Both the position numbers and the translations under genes were made by a program. A stretch of 35,424 nucleotides of DNA. It comes from Bacteroidota bacterium. Lineage in GTDB: Bacteria; Bacteroidota; Bacteroidia; J057. The notes beneath the pieces were generated by a model. The model had not been told where the DNA came from and searched no databases. It was given only the letters and a program-made list of their open reading frames with translations. Shown piece after piece: positions 17,744 to 30,744 of the stretch; the stretch's first letter is position 1, and each line of letters starts with the position of its first letter. The stretch spans positions 1-35,424 of the forward strand of contig JAYUZN010000717.1 of assembly GCA_043751755.1 (NCBI GenBank). The letters are read 5' to 3'.

Positions 17744-20728
17744 ATGACCAATATCAAATATCTCTCCATTTTCCTTTTGTGTGTGGCACTCTCTATAAGT
17801 GCCTCCGAATCCTCGAATATTACCGATTCTATTCATTTTTTGAAATATAAAAACCATGCTGCAGACGAAACACAATGGGCTGATAGTGTGCTACTTACCC
17901 TTTCTACCAAACAAAAAATAGGGCAACTGATGATGACTGCTGTCTTTGGTAGGGAAGAGGGCGGACAGGACATTGAAACCCGTAATTTGATAGAAAACTA
18001 CCATATTGGCGGACTTATTTTTATGAAAGCTGACCCTGCCATACAGGTAAACCTCACGAATCGTTACCAAAATTATGCTCGTCTGCCTTTGATGATTGCG
18101 CAAGATGCGGAATGGGGTATGAATATGCGTATGCCGAATGTTATTCGCTATCCGCACAACATGACTTTGGGCGCGATTCGCAATGATTCACTTTTGTATA
18201 AAATGGGTTTGATGATTGGCGAACAATGCAAAACGGTGGGCGTGCAAATCAATTTTGCCCCTGTGGTAGATGTGAATAACAATCCTGCGAATCCCGTCAT
18301 TGGCGACCGTTCTTATGGCGAAAATAAGTTCAATGTGGTGCGCAAAGCATGGATGTTTAGCAAGGGAATGATGGACAAAAATATCCTGCCTTGTGCCAAA
18401 CATTTTCCCGGACATGGCGATACAGACACCGATTCGCACAAGGATTTGCCCACAATTCCGTTCACAAGGGAGCGTTTAGATACGGTCGAGCTATATACTT
18501 TCCAAAAAATGGTGGAATATGGTATGCCTTCTATGATGGTTGCGCATTTGTTTATTCCTGCCTTAGACCCTACGCCCAATCGCCCTTCTACGCTTTCTCC
18601 CCTGATAATCAATGACTTGCTGCGGAAACAAATGCACTATGATGGGCTGGTTTTTACAGATGCACTCAATATGCAAGGAGTCGCAAAGTATTATGCCCCT
18701 GGTGAAGTGGAATTGTTGGCATTTAAGGCGGGAAATGATGTTTTGTTATATTCGCAAGATATTCCAAAAGCTGTGAGCCGTATTGAGTTGGCTTTGCAAA
18801 GCAAGGAAATCACGCAGGAGGACTTAGATGCAAAAGTGCTAAAAATCCTCAAAACCAAATATCGTCTTGGCTTAAACAAAAGACCTTCTACGCCGTATGG
18901 CGGCACATTGGAATATCTCAATTCTGGACAATCCAAAAGCCTTAAAAAAGAATTGTTTGAAGCGGCGGTTACTTTGGTCAAAAATGAAGGAAAACTTGTG
19001 CCTTTGAATTCTTTGGAAGGTTTGAACATTGCCTACGTACAAATTGGCGGCACAAAAGGAAATACTTTTTCCCGCACTTTGCAAAAATATGCCTCCGTAA
19101 AAGTCTTCAATTTGCCCAAAAACCCTACAGGAGAACAAGTTTCAAGCACTTTGAAAACCTTGCGCAGCTTCACAACGGTGATTGTGGGCGTGTTTGATGT
19201 GGAAAAAAAGATAGCTACGAATTTTGGAATAGATGGAATGACAAGCAACTTTTCTAAGCAATTAGCCGCAATTCCCACTATAAATACGATTTTATGCACC
19301 TTTGGCAGCCCCTATAGTTTGCGGAGTTTTGGCACAGAAAAGGCTGTTTTTTGTGGCTATGAGGAAGACGAAGATGCGCAAAGAGCCGTAGGTGCTGCGA
19401 TTTTTGGCGGGCTGATAGTAGATGGGCAGTTGCCTGTAACGGCTTCTGCGCAGTTTAAAGAAGGCATGGGCGAAATTATTCCTGTGGTTACCCGTTTTGG
19501 CTTTGCCCTGCCCGAAGAGTTGCAAATGAATAGCTATGTCTTGAACAAAATAGATTCTGTGGCAAATGCCTGTTTTCAAAGACGGGCGGTTCCGGGTTTT
19601 GCGGTAGCGGTTATGCGCCGCAACAAAATTGTGTATGAAAAGGGCTTTGGCAAGACGGATTATAGCCTTGCCGCTGATTCTATAGACCCGCTTTATGCTA
19701 TGTACGACATCGCTTCTGTAACAAAAGTGGTGGTAACTACGACTTTGGCAATGCACTTGGTAGAAAATGGTATGTTAGATTTGGATAAAACTATTTCTGA
19801 TTATTTGCCTGAATTTAAAAATAGCAATAAATCCTCCCTCACTGTGCGGGAATTGTTGCAACATACGGCGGGCTTAAAGGCTTGGATTCCTTTTTATTTG
19901 GACACTTACGAGGCAGGAAGTAAAACGCAACTGCGCAGAGATTTGTACAAAACAGAATATAGTGAATCCTATAACATAGAGGTTGCCCCTCGTTTTTACT
20001 TGAATCATACTTATAAAGATAGCATTTGGCAAAAAATCATCCACTCGGAAGTAGGTCCTCGCAGCCATATGGTTTACAGCGATTTAGGGGTCATTATTAC
20101 AGGAAAAATAATTGAAAGCATTGTAGGAACGTCTTTAGATGACTATTCTTGTACCAATTTCTACCAACCTATGGGCATGTCAAACACTATGTTCAATGCA
20201 GGACAAAAGGGCTATGCGCGTTTTTGCGCACCTACGGAAATAGATTCTGCTTGGCGACACAATGTATTGAAAGGCTATGTTCACGACCCTGCTTGTGCCA
20301 TGTTTGGGGGCGTTACGGGGCATGCCGGGCTTTTTTCCAATGTCTATGATTTGTGCAAATGGGCATTTATGATAAAAAATGGGGGCATTTATGGCAGTCG
20401 TGTGTATCTTGACGAGGCGACTATCAAAAATTGGACTTCCAAACAGGTGAGTTATAGCCGCAGAGGAATCGGCTGGGACAAGCCTAATTCTGACCCTGAC
20501 AGGTCGGGGCAGGTGTCGGGCTATGCGTCAGATGAGGCTTACGGGCATTTGGGCTTTACGGGTACTTCTGTTTGGATTGACCCCAAATATGACCTTGTTT
20601 TTGTGTTTCTTTCTAATAGAACCTATCCTTCTTCGCGCCGCACCTTGTTCAACAAGCTGCATGTGCGCAAGGAGGTGATGGATTTAGTGTATGAGTCTAT
20701 GATGAAAAAAGGGAAAATGGAATTGTGA
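17744..20728 (+). CDS. periplasmic fusion protein: GH3 beta-N-acetylhexosaminidase (NagZ-like) + class C beta-lactamase-fold serine hydrolase
   Basis: 994 aa with a signal peptide. The N-terminal half carries GH3 motifs ('KHFPGHGDTDTDSH', 'FTDALNM'). The C-terminal half has the SxxK motif 'DIASVTK' and the beta-lactamase/PBP fold. Confidence 0.85.
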   Translation: MTNIKYLSIFLLCVALSISASESSNITDSIHFLKYKNHAADETQWADSVLLTLSTKQKIGQLMMTAVFGREEGGQDIETRNLIENYHIGGLIFMKADPAIQVNLTNRYQNYARLPLMIAQDAEWGMNMRMPNVIRYPHNMTLGAIRNDSLLYKMGLMIGEQCKTVGVQINFAPVVDVNNNPANPVIGDRSYGENKFNVVRKAWMFSKGMMDKNILPCAKHFPGHGDTDTDSHKDLPTIPFTRERLDTVELYTFQKMVEYGMPSMMVAHLFIPALDPTPNRPSTLSPLIINDLLRKQMHYDGLVFTDALNMQGVAKYYAPGEVELLAFKAGNDVLLYSQDIPKAVSRIELALQSKEITQEDLDAKVLKILKTKYRLGLNKRPSTPYGGTLEYLNSGQSKSLKKELFEAAVTLVKNEGKLVPLNSLEGLNIAYVQIGGTKGNTFSRTLQKYASVKVFNLPKNPTGEQVSSTLKTLRSFTTVIVGVFDVEKKIATNFGIDGMTSNFSKQLAAIPTINTILCTFGSPYSLRSFGTEKAVFCGYEEDEDAQRAVGAAIFGGLIVDGQLPVTASAQFKEGMGEIIPVVTRFGFALPEELQMNSYVLNKIDSVANACFQRRAVPGFAVAVMRRNKIVYEKGFGKTDYSLAADSIDPLYAMYDIASVTKVVVTTTLAMHLVENGMLDLDKTISDYLPEFKNSNKSSLTVRELLQHTAGLKAWIPFYLDTYEAGSKTQLRRDLYKTEYSESYNIEVAPRFYLNHTYKDSIWQKIIHSEVGPRSHMVYSDLGVIITGKIIESIVGTSLDDYSCTNFYQPMGMSNTMFNAGQKGYARFCAPTEIDSAWRHNVLKGYVHDPACAMFGGVTGHAGLFSNVYDLCKWAFMIKNGGIYGSRVYLDEATIKNWTSKQVSYSRRGIGWDKPNSDPDRSGQVSGYASDEAYGHLGFTGTSVWIDPKYDLVFVFLSNRTYPSSRRTLFNKLHVRKEVMDLVYESMMKKGKMEL

Positions 20729-20792: not shown

Positions 20793-20873
20793 AGGACTTA
20801 TGCAAAACGTGTTTTTATAGTCACGAATTGCACGAATTATGGCTGTTAATTCGTGGCAAAATGCGTAAGTCCT
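20793..20873. repeat. structured inverted-repeat element between convergent genes
   Basis: The outer arms are 'AGGACTTATGCA' and 'TGCGTAAGTCCT'. The inner stem is 'CACGAATTA' and 'TAATTCGTG' (20831-20855). Confidence 0.6.
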
Positions 20874-20888
20874 AAAAATGTCATCTTT

Positions 20889-21338
20889 TCAAAGGGGTAT
20901 GTCGTTCCTATGTTCTATACTCTGTTGATACAAATTTTCAATAGAGATTTTAACAAGTCTCCGCATAAGTATTTCTGTTATTTTATCTAAGAAATTCTCC
21001 TTGGTTACCTCTTTTAAATTTTTATCCTCTTTTTCGCCTATATGACAATATATGTCAACCGGAAATCTGCCTTCTATCCCTTCAACAACTGTCAATATTT
21101 TTCGCCTAAAATTGCCCAAATAAGGTGCAACAACATAAAGCATGTAAAGCGCAACGGGCTTAGGAGGTTCTGTGTCCAAATAGGAGTCAATTGCTTCTAC
21201 CTCCATTTTTAATGCACCACTTGTTGCATCAACAAGCGAGTTTGACTGAGTTAGCAGTAAATTGTATGCTGATTCTTCTGTGGGTTCTGAAAAATCGAGG
21301 ACTTCCCAAATATTTTTCTCTGTAATTGGATGGGTCAT
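20889..21338 (-). CDS. hypothetical acidic protein, translationally coupled to the upstream EEP gene
   Basis: 149 aa with no family recognised. Its ATG overlaps the stop of the EEP gene (ATGA, 21335-21338). By my count it has about 25 D/E versus 16 K/R. Confidence 0.6.
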   Translation of the reverse strand: MTHPITEKNIWEVLDFSEPTEESAYNLLLTQSNSLVDATSGALKMEVEAIDSYLDTEPPKPVALYMLYVVAPYLGNFRRKILTVVEGIEGRFPVDIYCHIGEKEDKNLKEVTKENFLDKITEILMRRLVKISIENLYQQSIEHRNDIPL

Positions 21339-22162
21339 AATGTTAGTTTTAATATTATCGGTAAATGGTCGGAATAATTTGTCTTATCTGGACGACCGAA
21401 ATCTTTAGTTAGTTTATTATTGTAAATTTTAGTTACAATTTCTACAAATGGTTTGTTTAAATACGGTTTAAGGGTAGGACGCAAAATGATTTGGTCATAC
21501 ATATTCCATTGGTGTGAGATAGGTCCAGATGCTCTATAATAATGTGTCCCAAATGGTTCGGCAAAATCGCCGAAAAAATTCCACATGGGGTTATAAAAGT
21601 ATTTGGAGTAAGTACCATCAATTGTTCTGCCCGATTTTGCCATTGCATAATTCAAGTCTGACAAAGCATGTATTCCATTTGCATCTACAAGTCCATTTTC
21701 AAACGGGTTCATATTAAAGTCTCCTATTAAAATGGTGTTTGAACATTGTGTATCGCTTTCAATTTTGTCAATCGCTTGGGATAATTTTCCACATTCTGAT
21801 GTTAAACTATCATTCGACCAGTTTATTTTAGAAGGTAAATGAACAGCAATCAGATTGAAAGTGATTATCGTTGGAATAGATACTTTGTGTGCCGTCCAAC
21901 GAGCTGAAGGATAGAGAGAACTTTTATCTTCAAAATTAGTGTTTTCGTATCTTGAAATAATGGTTAATTTGTTCTTTGCAGATTCTATCCTATAATATTT
22001 TGTCCCTAAGGCATTTAATTTATGGATAAATGAAAGCACAATGGAGTCCTTGATTTCAGCTATACAAATAATATCCAACTCTTTTTCACGAGTCAAAGAA
22101 ACTAAGGAGTCGCTTAGGTCGTTATTGTTAGGCGAATTTACATTCCAAAATCCAATGTTCAT
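21335..22162 (-). CDS. endonuclease/exonuclease/phosphatase (EEP, DNase I-like) family protein
   Basis: 275 aa with no signal peptide. All EEP catalytic motifs are present in order: 'FWNVN', 'ICIAEI', 'AVHLPS', 'IGDFNMNP', 'YDQII', 'SDHLPI'. Confidence 0.8.
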   Translation of the reverse strand: MNIGFWNVNSPNNNDLSDSLVSLTREKELDIICIAEIKDSIVLSFIHKLNALGTKYYRIESAKNKLTIISRYENTNFEDKSSLYPSARWTAHKVSIPTIITFNLIAVHLPSKINWSNDSLTSECGKLSQAIDKIESDTQCSNTILIGDFNMNPFENGLVDANGIHALSDLNYAMAKSGRTIDGTYSKYFYNPMWNFFGDFAEPFGTHYYRASGPISHQWNMYDQIILRPTLKPYLNKPFVEIVTKIYNNKLTKDFGRPDKTNYSDHLPIILKLTL

Positions 22163-22214
22163 ATTGTTTGCTTACCATTATTTTATCAATACACAAATCT
22201 TTGATATATTAACG

Positions 22215-22222
22215 CAAAGATA
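22215..22222 (-). promoter_or_regulatory. -7 box TATCTTTG upstream of the EEP cassette
   Basis: TAnnTTTG on the minus strand, 52 nt upstream of the ATG at 22162. It lies in the spacer after the pyrR-like gene. Confidence 0.45.
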
Positions 22223-22311
22223 AAATCAAAAATACAACTATCCAAATAATTATACAATTTTTCTGCTTAAAATACAACCCCGAAGAACCCGCAGAAAGCA
22301 CCCTCAAAAAA

Positions 22312-22818
22312 TCACAGCAAAAACACCTCTGCTTTTCCGCCTTCTACTATCTCAAAAGACACATGTTGTTGCAAGGTTGTAGCCAATCTCATACCCACAT
22401 AATCAGGGGAAATTGGCATAAGCCGATGCCCCCTATCTACTAATACAAAGGCTTGAATACTCTTGGGTGCATAGCCCAAAATATGCGAAAAAGTGCTTAA
22501 TAAAGTCCTGCCAGAGTAGAGTACATCATCTATAACAATGACAGATTTGCCTACTAATGAAGGGGCTTCTGAAGCCCAATTCATCAACATTTTGCCTTCG
22601 TCATTTCTCTGCATATTTACCTGATAATGAAGGGTTTGAATAGTAGATATTTGGGATAAAAACTCCTGCAAAACCTCCGCAATAAAGCTGCCTTTTTCTT
22701 CTATTCCAATCAAAATAATTTCCATTTCCTCAAAATTTCGCTCATAGATTTGATAGGCGACTCGCAGCAGTTTATCCCTAAATTTGGAGTCCGAAAGAAT
22801 GGCTGTTTTGTTTGGCAT
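22312..22818 (-). CDS. pyrR: phosphoribosyltransferase, PyrR-like (pyrimidine operon regulator/uracil PRTase family)
   Basis: 168 aa. It has the PRPP-binding loop 'VIVIDDVLYSGRT' and 'VLVDRGHRLMPISPDYVG', typical of PyrR. Confidence 0.75.
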   Translation of the reverse strand: MPNKTAILSDSKFRDKLLRVAYQIYERNFEEMEIILIGIEEKGSFIAEVLQEFLSQISTIQTLHYQVNMQRNDEGKMLMNWASEAPSLVGKSVIVIDDVLYSGRTLLSTFSHILGYAPKSIQAFVLVDRGHRLMPISPDYVGMRLATTLQQHVSFEIVEGGKAEVFLL

Positions 22819-24457: not shown

Positions 24458-26344
24458 CTAATACAGCACCCGAAACTTAATCGTATCTTCTATTGCTTTG
24501 AGTGCGTCTATGACTTCGGGGATATATTCTTTATTAATATCCGTAATAACATAACCCAACCATTCATTTGTTTTCAAAAACTGCCCTTCAATATTGATGT
24601 TATGTGTGGCAAGCGTATTATTAATTTTTGCCAAAATTCCCGGCACATTTCTATGAATATGAATGAGTCTATGCACATTTTTTTGCTGTGGCAGTTGAAT
24701 ATTTGGGAAATTAACCGCCCCAAAAGTATTCCCCGTATTCACATATTCAATGATACGTGCAGGCACATATTCCGCAATATTTTGCTGCGCCTCCTCCGTA
24801 CTTCCGCCAATATGTGGGGTAAGAATCACATTTTCCAGTCCCCTCAATTCCGAAATAAAAGGTTCTTGATTGTTGAACGGCTCATAAGGAAAAACATCTA
24901 TACCCGCCCCTGCGATTTTTCCGCTTTTCAAGTGCTTGACTAACAAGCCAATATCTATAATAAAGCCCCTACTTAGGTTGAGAAAAATGGAACCCTTTTT
25001 CATTGCTTTAAATTCCTCTGCTCCAAAAAATAGCGCGTTTTCCTTGCGCCCGTCCACATGCAAAGTAACGACATCAGCTTTTTTGAGCAAATCTTGCAAA
25101 GAATTACATTTTTTAGCATTGCCCAATGCCAATTTTTCTACCACATCATAATAATACACCTCCATGCCCAACGCCTCTGCCAATACAGAAAGTTGTGTGC
25201 CAATATTCCCATAGCCCACAATTCCCAACTTTTTGCTCCGCACCTCAAAACAATCTTTCGCAGATTTGTTCCATTTTCCTGCGTGAAGCTGCTCATTCAT
25301 GGCAGGAATTTTGCGCATAAGCATAATTATTTCGCCCAACGCCAATTCCACAACGCTGCGGGTATTGCTATACGGCGCGTTGAAGGCAATCGTCCCCAAA
25401 TCTGCCGCAGCTTTGAGGTTCATTTGATTCGTACCAATGCAAAAAGCCCCCACAGCAATCAAGCGATTTGCATGAGAAAGCACTTTTTCGGTCAGTTGCG
25501 TTTTGGAACGAATGCCCAAAATAGAAACGCCTTGTATCTTCTCGCACAATTCTGCCTCCGTAGGCGAGCCTGCCAGCGTTTCCACCTGATAGCCCTCTTC
25601 CTTAAAACGCTCCACTGCCTTTGCATGAATATTTTCTAACAATAGCACTTTAATCCGATTTTTGGGATAAGATAAGGACATTTGTAAATGATTTATGTAT
25701 AAAAACTCGTCAAAAGTAGGCAAAACATGGTCAGCATTTGCCAAAATTCCGGGACGCAAAATATTTTCGGTAAAGGCATAAAAGCGATGCGCAATGCCAC
25801 TTTCTTTTGCTTCATAATCGGTGTAAGAATCGCCTATAACATAGATTTCGCCTTCCAAATTCAGGGTTTTGAGGAGGGTAGATTTGCCTTTACTATGCGC
25901 CAAAGGATTGCCTTCATCAAAGCCTATAACATACCCCTTTTCGTCAAACAAAAAGGTATTTGCCAACACATGTTCCGCATCTATGTCAAAATCTGCCACC
26001 ACAGGCGCGATAAATTCCTGAAAACCCAAAGACAAAATATAGACTTTTCCTTTATTTGTTTGAAAAAAAGCCTTATTTCGCGCAAAAGAAGTCGAAATCT
26101 TTTTGCGTAGCCTTTGCGTAAGTTTTTCTATGTCTTTTTGATGAATCGTGAGTAAAGCCAACCTTTGTTTGAGCGAATCATAAAAGGAAATTTTGCCCTC
26201 CATGCCCAAGTCTGTAATTGCCTTGACCTGCTGAAAAAGGATTTTTCGTTCTTTGAGGCTGCTAACAGTGAGATTTACCAATTCTTCTAAAGCCTCTACC
26301 TGCGTAAAAGTACTGTCAAAATCTATTATAATATTTGCTTGCAT
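24458..26344 (-). CDS. serA: fused phosphoserine phosphatase (HAD, SerB-like) / D-3-phosphoglycerate dehydrogenase (SerA) with ACT domain
   Basis: 628 aa. The N-terminus has HAD motif I 'IIIDFDSTFT' and 'GDSYTDYE'. The C-terminal roughly 400 aa has the 2-hydroxyacid dehydrogenase Rossmann motif 'GIVGYGNIGTQ', 'LTPHIGGST', and a terminal ACT-like segment. Confidence 0.85.
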   Translation of the reverse strand: MQANIIIDFDSTFTQVEALEELVNLTVSSLKERKILFQQVKAITDLGMEGKISFYDSLKQRLALLTIHQKDIEKLTQRLRKKISTSFARNKAFFQTNKGKVYILSLGFQEFIAPVVADFDIDAEHVLANTFLFDEKGYVIGFDEGNPLAHSKGKSTLLKTLNLEGEIYVIGDSYTDYEAKESGIAHRFYAFTENILRPGILANADHVLPTFDEFLYINHLQMSLSYPKNRIKVLLLENIHAKAVERFKEEGYQVETLAGSPTEAELCEKIQGVSILGIRSKTQLTEKVLSHANRLIAVGAFCIGTNQMNLKAAADLGTIAFNAPYSNTRSVVELALGEIIMLMRKIPAMNEQLHAGKWNKSAKDCFEVRSKKLGIVGYGNIGTQLSVLAEALGMEVYYYDVVEKLALGNAKKCNSLQDLLKKADVVTLHVDGRKENALFFGAEEFKAMKKGSIFLNLSRGFIIDIGLLVKHLKSGKIAGAGIDVFPYEPFNNQEPFISELRGLENVILTPHIGGSTEEAQQNIAEYVPARIIEYVNTGNTFGAVNFPNIQLPQQKNVHRLIHIHRNVPGILAKINNTLATHNINIEGQFLKTNEWLGYVITDINKEYIPEVIDALKAIEDTIKFRVLY

Positions 26345-30264: not shown

Positions 30265-30744
30265 ATGGCAGAATTATTGACAAATACCACAATACAGGAT
30301 AATAGCGACTTGGATAGGGTCGCGGATTTGCTGAAAGATTATACAATAGATACAGAGAAGAAATATGAGGAATTAAATAAAATCAGTAAATTTCATTTTA
30401 ACATATCTTATTTGCTGTTTGTTTGCCTCATTGTTATGACTATTTTTACCGTTTATAATATATCTCACCTTATTACAATTACTGAAAGTATAATATTCTT
30501 TGTATATGTTATGTTAGTGGCTTTTTTGGGTCTATATATATGGAACAGTAATCCTAAAGATAGAAAAAATAAAACAGAATTAATAGACTCCCTTCAAATC
30601 TCTCGCAAACGCCTATCAGAAGTCATGAAGTTTGCCAGCCAATATCTTGAAAATAAGGAACTTACCGACATTCGCAGATTTGAATTAAAACTCTTACTTT
30701 CAGACGCAGATGCTATTTACCTCAAATCAGAAAAATATGTATAG
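30265..30744 (+). CDS. small two-transmembrane-helix protein, uncharacterised
   Basis: 159 aa, starting 6 nt after the NTPase stop. Two adjacent hydrophobic helices (about aa 46-65 and 68-93) are flanked by charged helical regions. The gene is very AT-rich. Confidence 0.65.
   Translation: MAELLTNTTIQDNSDLDRVADLLKDYTIDTEKKYEELNKISKFHFNISYLLFVCLIVMTIFTVYNISHLITITESIIFFVYVMLVAFLGLYIWNSNPKDRKNKTELIDSLQISRKRLSEVMKFASQYLENKELTDIRRFELKLLLSDADAIYLKSEKYV

Follow-up and report, generated by a model that had tools for sequence, protein, structure and literature searches.

What could be the function of a DNase I-like enzyme whose gene runs directly into the gene of a small protein without a recognizable family? 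The question is raised by a cassette at positions 20889-22222 of contig JAYUZN010000717.1 from a Bacteroidota bacterium (assembly GCA_043751755.1), of which positions 1-35,424 were analyzed as a whole and are called the window in this text. The first gene of the cassette encodes a 275-aa enzyme of the EEP fold, and the second encodes a 149-aa protein, which we call the partner. An earlier reading made from the DNA letters alone, referred to below as the sequence-only reading, had taken the two as a candidate nuclease/inhibitor pair or a two-gene anti-phage system, and the two minus-strand open reading frames (ORFs) with their ATGA overlap were found exactly as it had described them (Table 1). 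Our present findings showed that the two genes form a conserved unit in nine or more phyla. We give about an even chance to the explanation of the cassette as a conflict module of two genes that moves horizontally, that is, a toxin/neutralizer-like pair or an abortive-infection or anti-phage pair, a function that we infer from its context.

Conserved pairing of the two genes

We scanned one genome per species, in total 185,579 species, for the EEP protein. At least 575 loci were confirmed, and the best 80 of them were analyzed. The partner was sought at these loci with a profile that was built from close partners and iterated once, by an ORF search and then by a six-frame search. Two of the 80 loci end at a contig edge and were left unscored. 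At 77 of the 78 evaluable loci, the EEP gene was directly followed by a partner homologue (67 by the ORF search and 10 by the six-frame search), so that the small ORF, as the sequence-only reading had supposed, is a regular companion of the enzyme. The sole EEP gene without a partner (locus L033) belongs to a metagenome-assembled genome that also holds a 77%-identical EEP gene with a partner (L020).

The spacing of the two genes was also conserved. In 67 related loci, the stop and start codons overlapped by 1-4 nt in 12 and were separated by 0-15 nt in 41; that is, the distance was between -4 and +15 nt in 53/67. The genes are adjacent, co-oriented, tightly spaced and conserved as a pair, as are those of type II toxin-antitoxin (TA) loci. 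No third gene was conserved across lineages at the best 80 loci. When the pairwise-identity matrices of the two proteins were compared, they were strongly correlated (r = 0.89; 30 pairs; Mantel test, 0/999 permutations), with the partner diverging faster than the enzyme (mean identity 27% vs 40%). These results indicate joint inheritance of the two genes, with gene order and tight spacing maintained. The pairing rule is firm and can be reused in annotation, whatever the function of the pair may be.

Several loci departed from the simple arrangement. In L022, the EEP gene is frameshifted, while the partner gene is intact and is accompanied by an extra partner fragment. In Desulfobacterales bacterium HSG2 (L066:1919-4175), a single EEP gene precedes a tandem array of three partner paralogues (135, 144 and 169 aa), which are 45-54% identical to one another. 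The protein P0287 is a single 263-aa chain in which two partner domains are fused. By analogy, the erosion in L022, the tandem array in L066, the fusion in P0287 and the relation of L033 to L020 resemble patterns that are typical of toxin/immunity loci.

The EEP protein

The match of the 275-aa protein to the Pfam family PF03372 (Exo_endo_phos) exceeded the cut-off of 24.5 bits (score 43.7 bits, E = 3.5e-11). When 21 homologues with identities down to 38% were aligned, the catalytic residues N7, E36, D148, N150, D223, D265 and H266 were all invariant, and W6, H108, Q224 and S264 were also invariant. That is, the motifs by which the sequence-only reading had recognized the fold (WNV, IAEI, AVHL, GDFNMN, YDQI and SDH) correspond to the invariant columns of the family. 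The alignment further contained an invariant block specific to this family, consisting of Y190-N-P-M-W194, G198, G205-T206 and W219. The loop concerned (FYNPMW...GD...GT) was modelled at low confidence.

No N-terminal hydrophobic segment was found in the protein, and the catalytic N7 is already located in the first strand. We therefore consider the enzyme to be cytoplasmic, in agreement with the intracellular location proposed earlier. The family is single-domain throughout, with lengths of 262-320 aa. None of the marks of a secreted polymorphic toxin was found in EEP, whether a signal peptide, a trafficking, PAAR, Rhs, LXG or type IX secretion system (T9SS) domain, or a linkage to secretion genes.

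The AlphaFold2 model of EEP (pLDDT 85.5) gave 203 matches at E <= 1e-3 when compared with the PDB by Foldseek, and all 50 matches that were listed were EEP enzymes, in accord with the four-layer alpha/beta sandwich of that superfamily. The top matches were LINE-1 EN, TDP2, DNase1L3, DNase I, ExoIII and nocturnin (E ~1e-10, TM-score 0.5-0.6, identity 12-17%), and neither a sphingomyelinase nor an inositol phosphatase was present among the top 50. At the level of sequence, similarity to characterized enzymes was limited to exodeoxyribonuclease III. The score against TIGR00633, the exodeoxyribonuclease III family, was 28.8 bits, below the cut-off of 99.05 (E = 8e-7); the score against the equivalog TIGR00195 was 19.7 bits, below the cut-off of 182.55; and the sequence match in the PDB was an ExoIII of the Mth212 type (E = 1e-3). 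The search of PADLOC-DB v2.0.0 gave 0 families at E <= 1. Judged from its sequence, the protein belongs to a distinct EEP clade and is intact. Its substrate, as far as the modelled fold can indicate, is most likely a nucleic acid, either DNA or RNA.

We know of no described TA or defense system in which the EEP fold is the active effector. In the defense literature that was searched, the sole mention of EEP was an inactivated domain in ARMADA II helicases; another match to "EEP" was the name of a phage.

The partner protein

The partner contains 25 Asp and Glu residues and 16 Lys and Arg residues, precisely the numbers counted by eye in the sequence-only reading, and its pI is 4.83. That reading had found no recognizable family for it, and our profile searches gave the same answer in Pfam, NCBIfam, PADLOC (0 families at E <= 1) and PHROG. 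The search of its sequence against the PDB yielded nothing significant (E ~1). The protein has 42 close homologues, and 215 representative clusters were obtained with a narrow profile (50% identity, E <= 1e-3). Longer variants of 222-246 aa carry C-terminal extensions without a known domain.

The AlphaFold2 model of the partner (pLDDT 91.6, pTM 0.81) consists of three short N-terminal helices, a five-stranded sheet and two C-terminal helices. In Foldseek searches this fold had no match in the PDB (best E = 0.08, TM-score ~0.2-0.3) or in BFVD (best E = 0.02). The residues conserved throughout the family (W11, L28, Q31, L35, T39, P72, L74, N76, P93, F116 and Q139) are hydrophobic or structural, and no constellation of a catalytic type is found among them. 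For this reason the partner is predicted to be a binding protein rather than an enzyme.

A role of the partner as a DNA-mimic inhibitor, considered as a property of the family, was rejected, because the pI values of the family extend from 4.6 to 9.6 (median 5.3). On the same values, the acidity of the protein, in which the sequence-only reading had seen a sign of a toxin/immunity pair, is a weak argument.

Distribution of the pair and its carriage on mobile elements

The best 80 loci span Bacteroidota, Acidobacteriota, Planctomycetota, Desulfobacterota, Armatimonadota, Chlorobiales, Spirochaetaceae, Campylobacterota and Pseudomonadota. The pair is commonest in Acidobacteriota, Planctomycetota and Bacteroidota; its occurrence is patchy, and some genomes hold several copies. 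Most copies are chromosomal and lie outside prophages.

The clearest carriage on a mobile element was observed in Hymenobacter sp. 102, in which three copies of a stretch of at least 12.8 kb were found (L002, L003 and L004), two in the chromosome and one in plasmid unnamedA, with 99.98-100% identity. Its cargo comprises a DUF1156-like methyltransferase, a protein with HEPN_Swt1 and DUF499 domains, the EEP pair and a tyrosine integrase. The stretch, the ends of which are unmapped, looks like a recently active mobile defense element. In Clostridium estertheticum (Bacillota), a phage-plasmid carries a true pair just before the terminase genes. Moreover, the complete pair was found on 10 viral contigs of IMG/VR, in most cases no more than ~1 kb from the contig end, with RecT-like, exonuclease VIII, portal, structural or integrase genes as neighbors. 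Because the distribution is patchy over many phyla, with multiple copies and carriage on mobile elements, the pair is accessory and horizontally mobile. An accessory status agrees with what the sequence-only reading had expected.

Four of the IMG/VR contigs (L120, L122, L124 and L126) are related temperate-phage contigs, in which the pair and a conserved group of genes (regulator, RecT-like and exonuclease VIII) are transcribed divergently. In these the pair is always found within ~0.3-1.5 kb of the contig end; this regularity suggests that its position at a prophage border is fixed.

Two further candidates were rejected. In the Acidobacteriaceae metagenome-assembled genome MFD10071.bin.1.76, a stretch of at least 6 kb with the pair occurs in three copies that are 99.3-99.5% identical (L017, L018 and L019). 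The copies are located near contig ends, with argF-, argC- and argR-like genes on their flanks; they probably represent strain or assembly redundancy and not transposition, and they were not counted as a mobile element. The locus on Bacillus mycoides plasmid pl395 (L081:5588-7577) was rejected as a member, since the 261-aa protein encoded downstream is not detectably related to the partner. There, a divergent EEP gene (31% identity) forms an overlapping three-gene operon with the genes of a 104-aa CxxC...CxxC protein and of the 261-aa protein, and the operon adjoins a retron Eco8 and is preceded by a prophage lysis cassette. This locus could represent a sister system in which another protein takes the place of the partner.

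Genomic neighborhoods of the pair

The sequence-only reading had pointed to defense islands and prophages as contexts for such pairs, and this was seen sometimes, in individual cases that include the Hymenobacter stretch. A MmeI-like restriction-modification enzyme and an integrase flank the cluster of the close homologue P0008. In L110 the pair has a type I S subunit on one side and NACHT and McrB-like NTPases on the other, in L066 a Dam-like methylase and an AAA_21 ATPase follow the partner array, and in L033 a VapBC-like pair is found upstream. When the 146 nearest neighbors were scanned, the matches included HipA, PIN, AAA_21, integrase, AriA, mad3, AbiLi and HmaBC, and they also included aconitase, ATP synthase, tRNA synthetases and RecA. 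Secretion-system genes did not recur in these neighborhoods.

Other copies stand among core genes. The pair was found directly after mfd in L106, before the PEPCK gene in L111 and among arginine-biosynthesis genes in L017. In six species of Chitinophaga, the locus is syntenic and lies between recA and a gene for an HhH-GPD glycosylase.

We also compared the junction of the window's cassette, which lies between a pyrR-like gene and a gene for a NagZ fusion protein, with that of relatives. Around the nearest relative of the NagZ fusion (L113, 90% aa identity), neither flank is syntenic with the window, and more distant relatives differ too. Since the flanks of a relative as close as this are wholly different, local synteny is poor in this lineage. 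In a metagenome scan with the pyrR protein, relatives were obtained only at <=38% identity over most of the protein. What the comparison shows is that the pair is not beside the NagZ-fusion gene in those relatives; it does not address insertion at this site.

Proposed function and rival explanations

We favor a model in which the partner binds the nuclease and restrains it until a trigger arrives; the data are compatible with an inhibitor and with an activator or sensor. According to this model, EEP would be the effector and would act as a metal-dependent phosphodiesterase, most likely on DNA or RNA, and the partner would be a non-enzymatic protein of undescribed fold that binds EEP and gates its activity. 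Translational coupling would ensure that EEP is never made without the partner. Upon a trigger, which could be phage infection or the loss or turnover of the partner, the nuclease would act and would either stop growth or destroy the invading nucleic acid. A conflict module is the best fit because of the order and coupling of the genes, the erosion of the enzyme with the partner kept, the tandem partner arrays, the carriage on prophages and plasmids, and the recurrent settings in defense islands. The sequence-only reading had itself named findings that would speak against it; of those that can be checked by computation, namely an enzyme of the sphingomyelinase or metabolic phosphatase type, a small ORF that is not conserved beside it and a cassette shared by all relatives as core genome, none was observed.

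Several observations nevertheless weigh against a conflict module. Full-text literature searches gave no published description of the pair, just as PADLOC gave no match, and no match to the pair was obtained in 50,697 GenBank phage genomes. In the window, neither target-site duplications nor terminal repeats nor other repeats flanking the cassette were found. The association with defense islands consists of case-by-case sightings, and many copies, including that of the window, stand alone between housekeeping genes. The synteny in Chitinophaga is unusual for defense or TA genes. As for the partner, it is only mildly acidic family-wide, and no helix-turn-helix (HTH), ribbon-helix-helix (RHH), AbrB or other DNA-binding family, a typical trait of type II antitoxins, was found in it or in its longer variants.

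One rival explanation is that the pair serves DNA repair or processing. In this case, EEP could be an ExoIII-, APE- or TDP2-like enzyme that cleans ends or removes adducts, and the partner could target or regulate it on damaged DNA. The sequence similarity to exodeoxyribonuclease III (both TIGR00633 and the Mth212-type enzyme), the high-ranking structural matches to TDP2, ExoIII and DNase I, the recA and HhH-GPD glycosylase flanks in Chitinophaga, the position after mfd in L106, and the RecT-like and exonuclease VIII neighbors in the four related viral contigs all point in this direction. We think it unlikely, however, since the pair is patchy across nine or more phyla and multi-copy in some genomes, is carried by a plasmid, a phage-plasmid and prophages, and occurs in restriction-modification, NACHT and McrB islands. 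Furthermore, its partner evolves fast and is tandemly duplicated, the TIGR00633 score of 28.8 is far under the cut-off of 99, and in the phage contigs the pair and the recombination genes are divergently transcribed.

The assumption of a nuclease can also be questioned. The enzyme could be a phosphoesterase that acts on an NAD(P)H-type substrate, a cyclic oligonucleotide signal or a phospholipid, with the partner as a substrate-binding or regulatory subunit; in phages it could serve counter-defense. Nocturnin, which is an NADPH phosphatase, is found among the fold matches, the EEP fold is catalytically versatile in general, the family has an invariant loop of its own, and temperate phages carry the pair. 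We regard this as improbable when the mostly DNA-directed enzymes of the top 50 fold matches, from which sphingomyelinases and inositol phosphatases are absent, are considered together with the predominance of chromosomal copies outside prophages and the missing matches in GenBank phages. Very improbable, in our view, is an interbacterial effector/immunity pair, in which EEP would be a DNase toxin delivered by a type VI or other secretion system and the partner its immunity protein. EEP has no signal peptide, N-terminal trafficking domain or T9SS C-terminal domain, and its core begins at residue 7 in proteins of 262-320 aa; secretion-system genes do not recur nearby; and the pair is found where delivery is not expected, as in the Clostridium phage-plasmid, in prophages and in some of the phyla. 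These points stand against the toxin-then-immunity order with its tight coupling, the fast evolution of the partner, the three diverged partners in L066, which resemble orphan-immunity arrays, and the general precedent of CdtB that EEP DNases can be toxins.

A narrower form of the conflict explanation is that the pair represents an unrecognized family of abortive-infection or anti-phage systems, in which the new-fold partner is the infection sensor or switch for an EEP-fold nuclease and not merely its inhibitor. We put this forward tentatively, as a possible but rather doubtful reading. If it were true, tandem diverged partners such as those in L066 would widen the range of triggers, and the family would be widespread in poorly studied phyla of soil and water (Acidobacteriota, Planctomycetota, Bacteroidota and Desulfobacterota).

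Returning to the conflict module in its general form, if the pair is a toxin/neutralizer or defense pair, the EEP (DNase I/ExoIII) fold would join the effectors of intracellular conflict, and a function would be given to a protein family of unknown fold that comprises at least 215 clusters at 50% identity, none of them in Pfam. The immune repertoires of the host phyla Acidobacteriota, Planctomycetota and Bacteroidota are little explored. The module is compact (~1.3 kb) and can be tested directly in Escherichia coli or in Bacteroidota hosts. If EEP instead works in repair and the partner is an accessory factor, the pair would represent a new bacterial pathway of the TDP2/ExoIII type.

Comparison with known systems

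Two-gene modules based on a nuclease are known both as toxin/neutralizer and as defense systems; what would be new here is the combination of an EEP effector with a partner of novel fold. The pair resembles toxin-first type II TA loci (higBA, hicAB and mqsRA) and nuclease-inhibitor pairs (barnase-barstar, colicin DNase-Im and NucA-NuiA) in its tight two-gene operon with the putative toxin first, in the faster evolution of the second gene, in its scattered, multi-copy and mobile distribution, and in the eroded "toxin" whose partner is kept. It differs from them in that the partner has neither a DNA-binding domain nor similarity to antitoxin or immunity families, and a 275-aa EEP enzyme is not a toxin fold that we know or could find among TA systems. 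With the two-gene nuclease systems against phages (Gabija, Septu, Shedu variants and the PD-T4 and PD-Lambda pairs), the pair shares a small operon, a nuclease-fold effector, and neighborhoods of restriction, NACHT, McrB or retron genes and prophages. In contrast to those systems, it has no NTPase component, its partner has a new fold, PADLOC gives no match, and many of its copies lie outside islands.

Regarding the enzyme itself, the ExoIII/APE1-type AP endonucleases have the same fold and the full catalytic set, but they lack the invariant insert and the obligate downstream partner of the present family, and they are near-universal housekeeping enzymes, whereas the genes described here are patchy and mobile. 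TDP2, the LINE-1 endonuclease and DNase I/DNase1L3 are the best structural neighbors, and all of them act on phosphodiesters of nucleic acids; unlike EEP, they are eukaryotic, are only 12-17% identical to it, have other loops and have no co-encoded small partner of this kind. CdtB is a bacterial DNase I-like EEP toxin that has a signal peptide, is delivered into eukaryotic cells by CdtA and CdtC and has no immunity protein. The likeness lies in the EEP fold of a bacterial toxin, and the difference is that EEP here is cytoplasmic and is paired with an unrelated protein.

Layout of the cassette and other features of the window

The features of the cassette and its surroundings are listed in Table 1. 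The promoter-like box that the sequence-only reading had assigned to the cassette is present. It lies 53 nt ahead of the ATG of the EEP gene, within the 150-nt spacer that separates this gene from pyrR. The sigma-A promoters of Bacteroidota follow a -33/-7 layout, and the arrangement of TTTG, 20 nt and TATCTTTG matches this spacing, which suggests a promoter. The box is weak evidence, because TAnnTTTG is common in the window, being modestly above chance with 62 occurrences vs 45.6 +/- 6.9 expected.

The inverted repeat noted earlier downstream of the cassette is also real. Its arms (20793-20804 and 20862-20873) are 12 nt long and 92% complementary, and the 126-nt stretch folds at -27.4 kcal/mol (z = -3.8 vs shuffles) and is followed by a U-rich run. 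The hairpin occurs once in the window. Since it is placed between the cassette and the convergent NagZ-fusion gene, it probably terminates transcription of the cassette, and it possibly acts in both directions as a terminator common to the two.

The low GC content, from which foreign origin had been argued, was confirmed in part. The EEP gene (33.3%) and the partner gene (36.4%) are indeed below pyrR (39.4%), the NagZ fusion (43.0%) and the window (40.3%), but they do not have the 28-32% that had been read from two lines; among the 24 ORFs they rank second and fourth lowest and are not outliers. The argument from composition is a modest one.

Table 1. Coordinates of the cassette and of neighboring features in the window
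Feature	Position	Strand	Remarks
EEP enzyme gene	21335..22162	-	275-aa ORF confirmed; predicted cytoplasmic; catalytic residues all intact
Partner gene	20889..21338	-	149-aa ORF confirmed
ATGA stop/start overlap of the EEP and partner genes	21335..21338	-	translational coupling, as read from the sequence
Promoter-like element	22215..22246	-	TTTG at 22243-22246, 20-nt spacer, TATCTTTG at 22215-22222; putative function, by match to consensus
Compound hairpin and U-rich run	20793..20873	-	inverted-repeat pair I10; putative terminator
pyrR-like gene	22312..22818
NagZ-fusion gene	17744..20728	+	994 aa; convergent with the cassette
628-aa ORF	24458..26344	-
159-aa ORF	30265..30744	+

Three other genes of the window attracted our attention. 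The 994-aa fusion next to the cassette combines a GH3 (NagZ-like) domain with a serine hydrolase of the beta-lactamase fold, and it has more than 7,900 homologues, mainly in Bacteroidota. The 159-aa ORF has the lowest GC content of the long ORFs (30.6%, with a GC3 of 30.6%), below that of the EEP cassette, and may be another acquired gene. The 628-aa ORF was read by eye as a fusion of a HAD-type (SerB-like) phosphatase and D-3-phosphoglycerate dehydrogenase.

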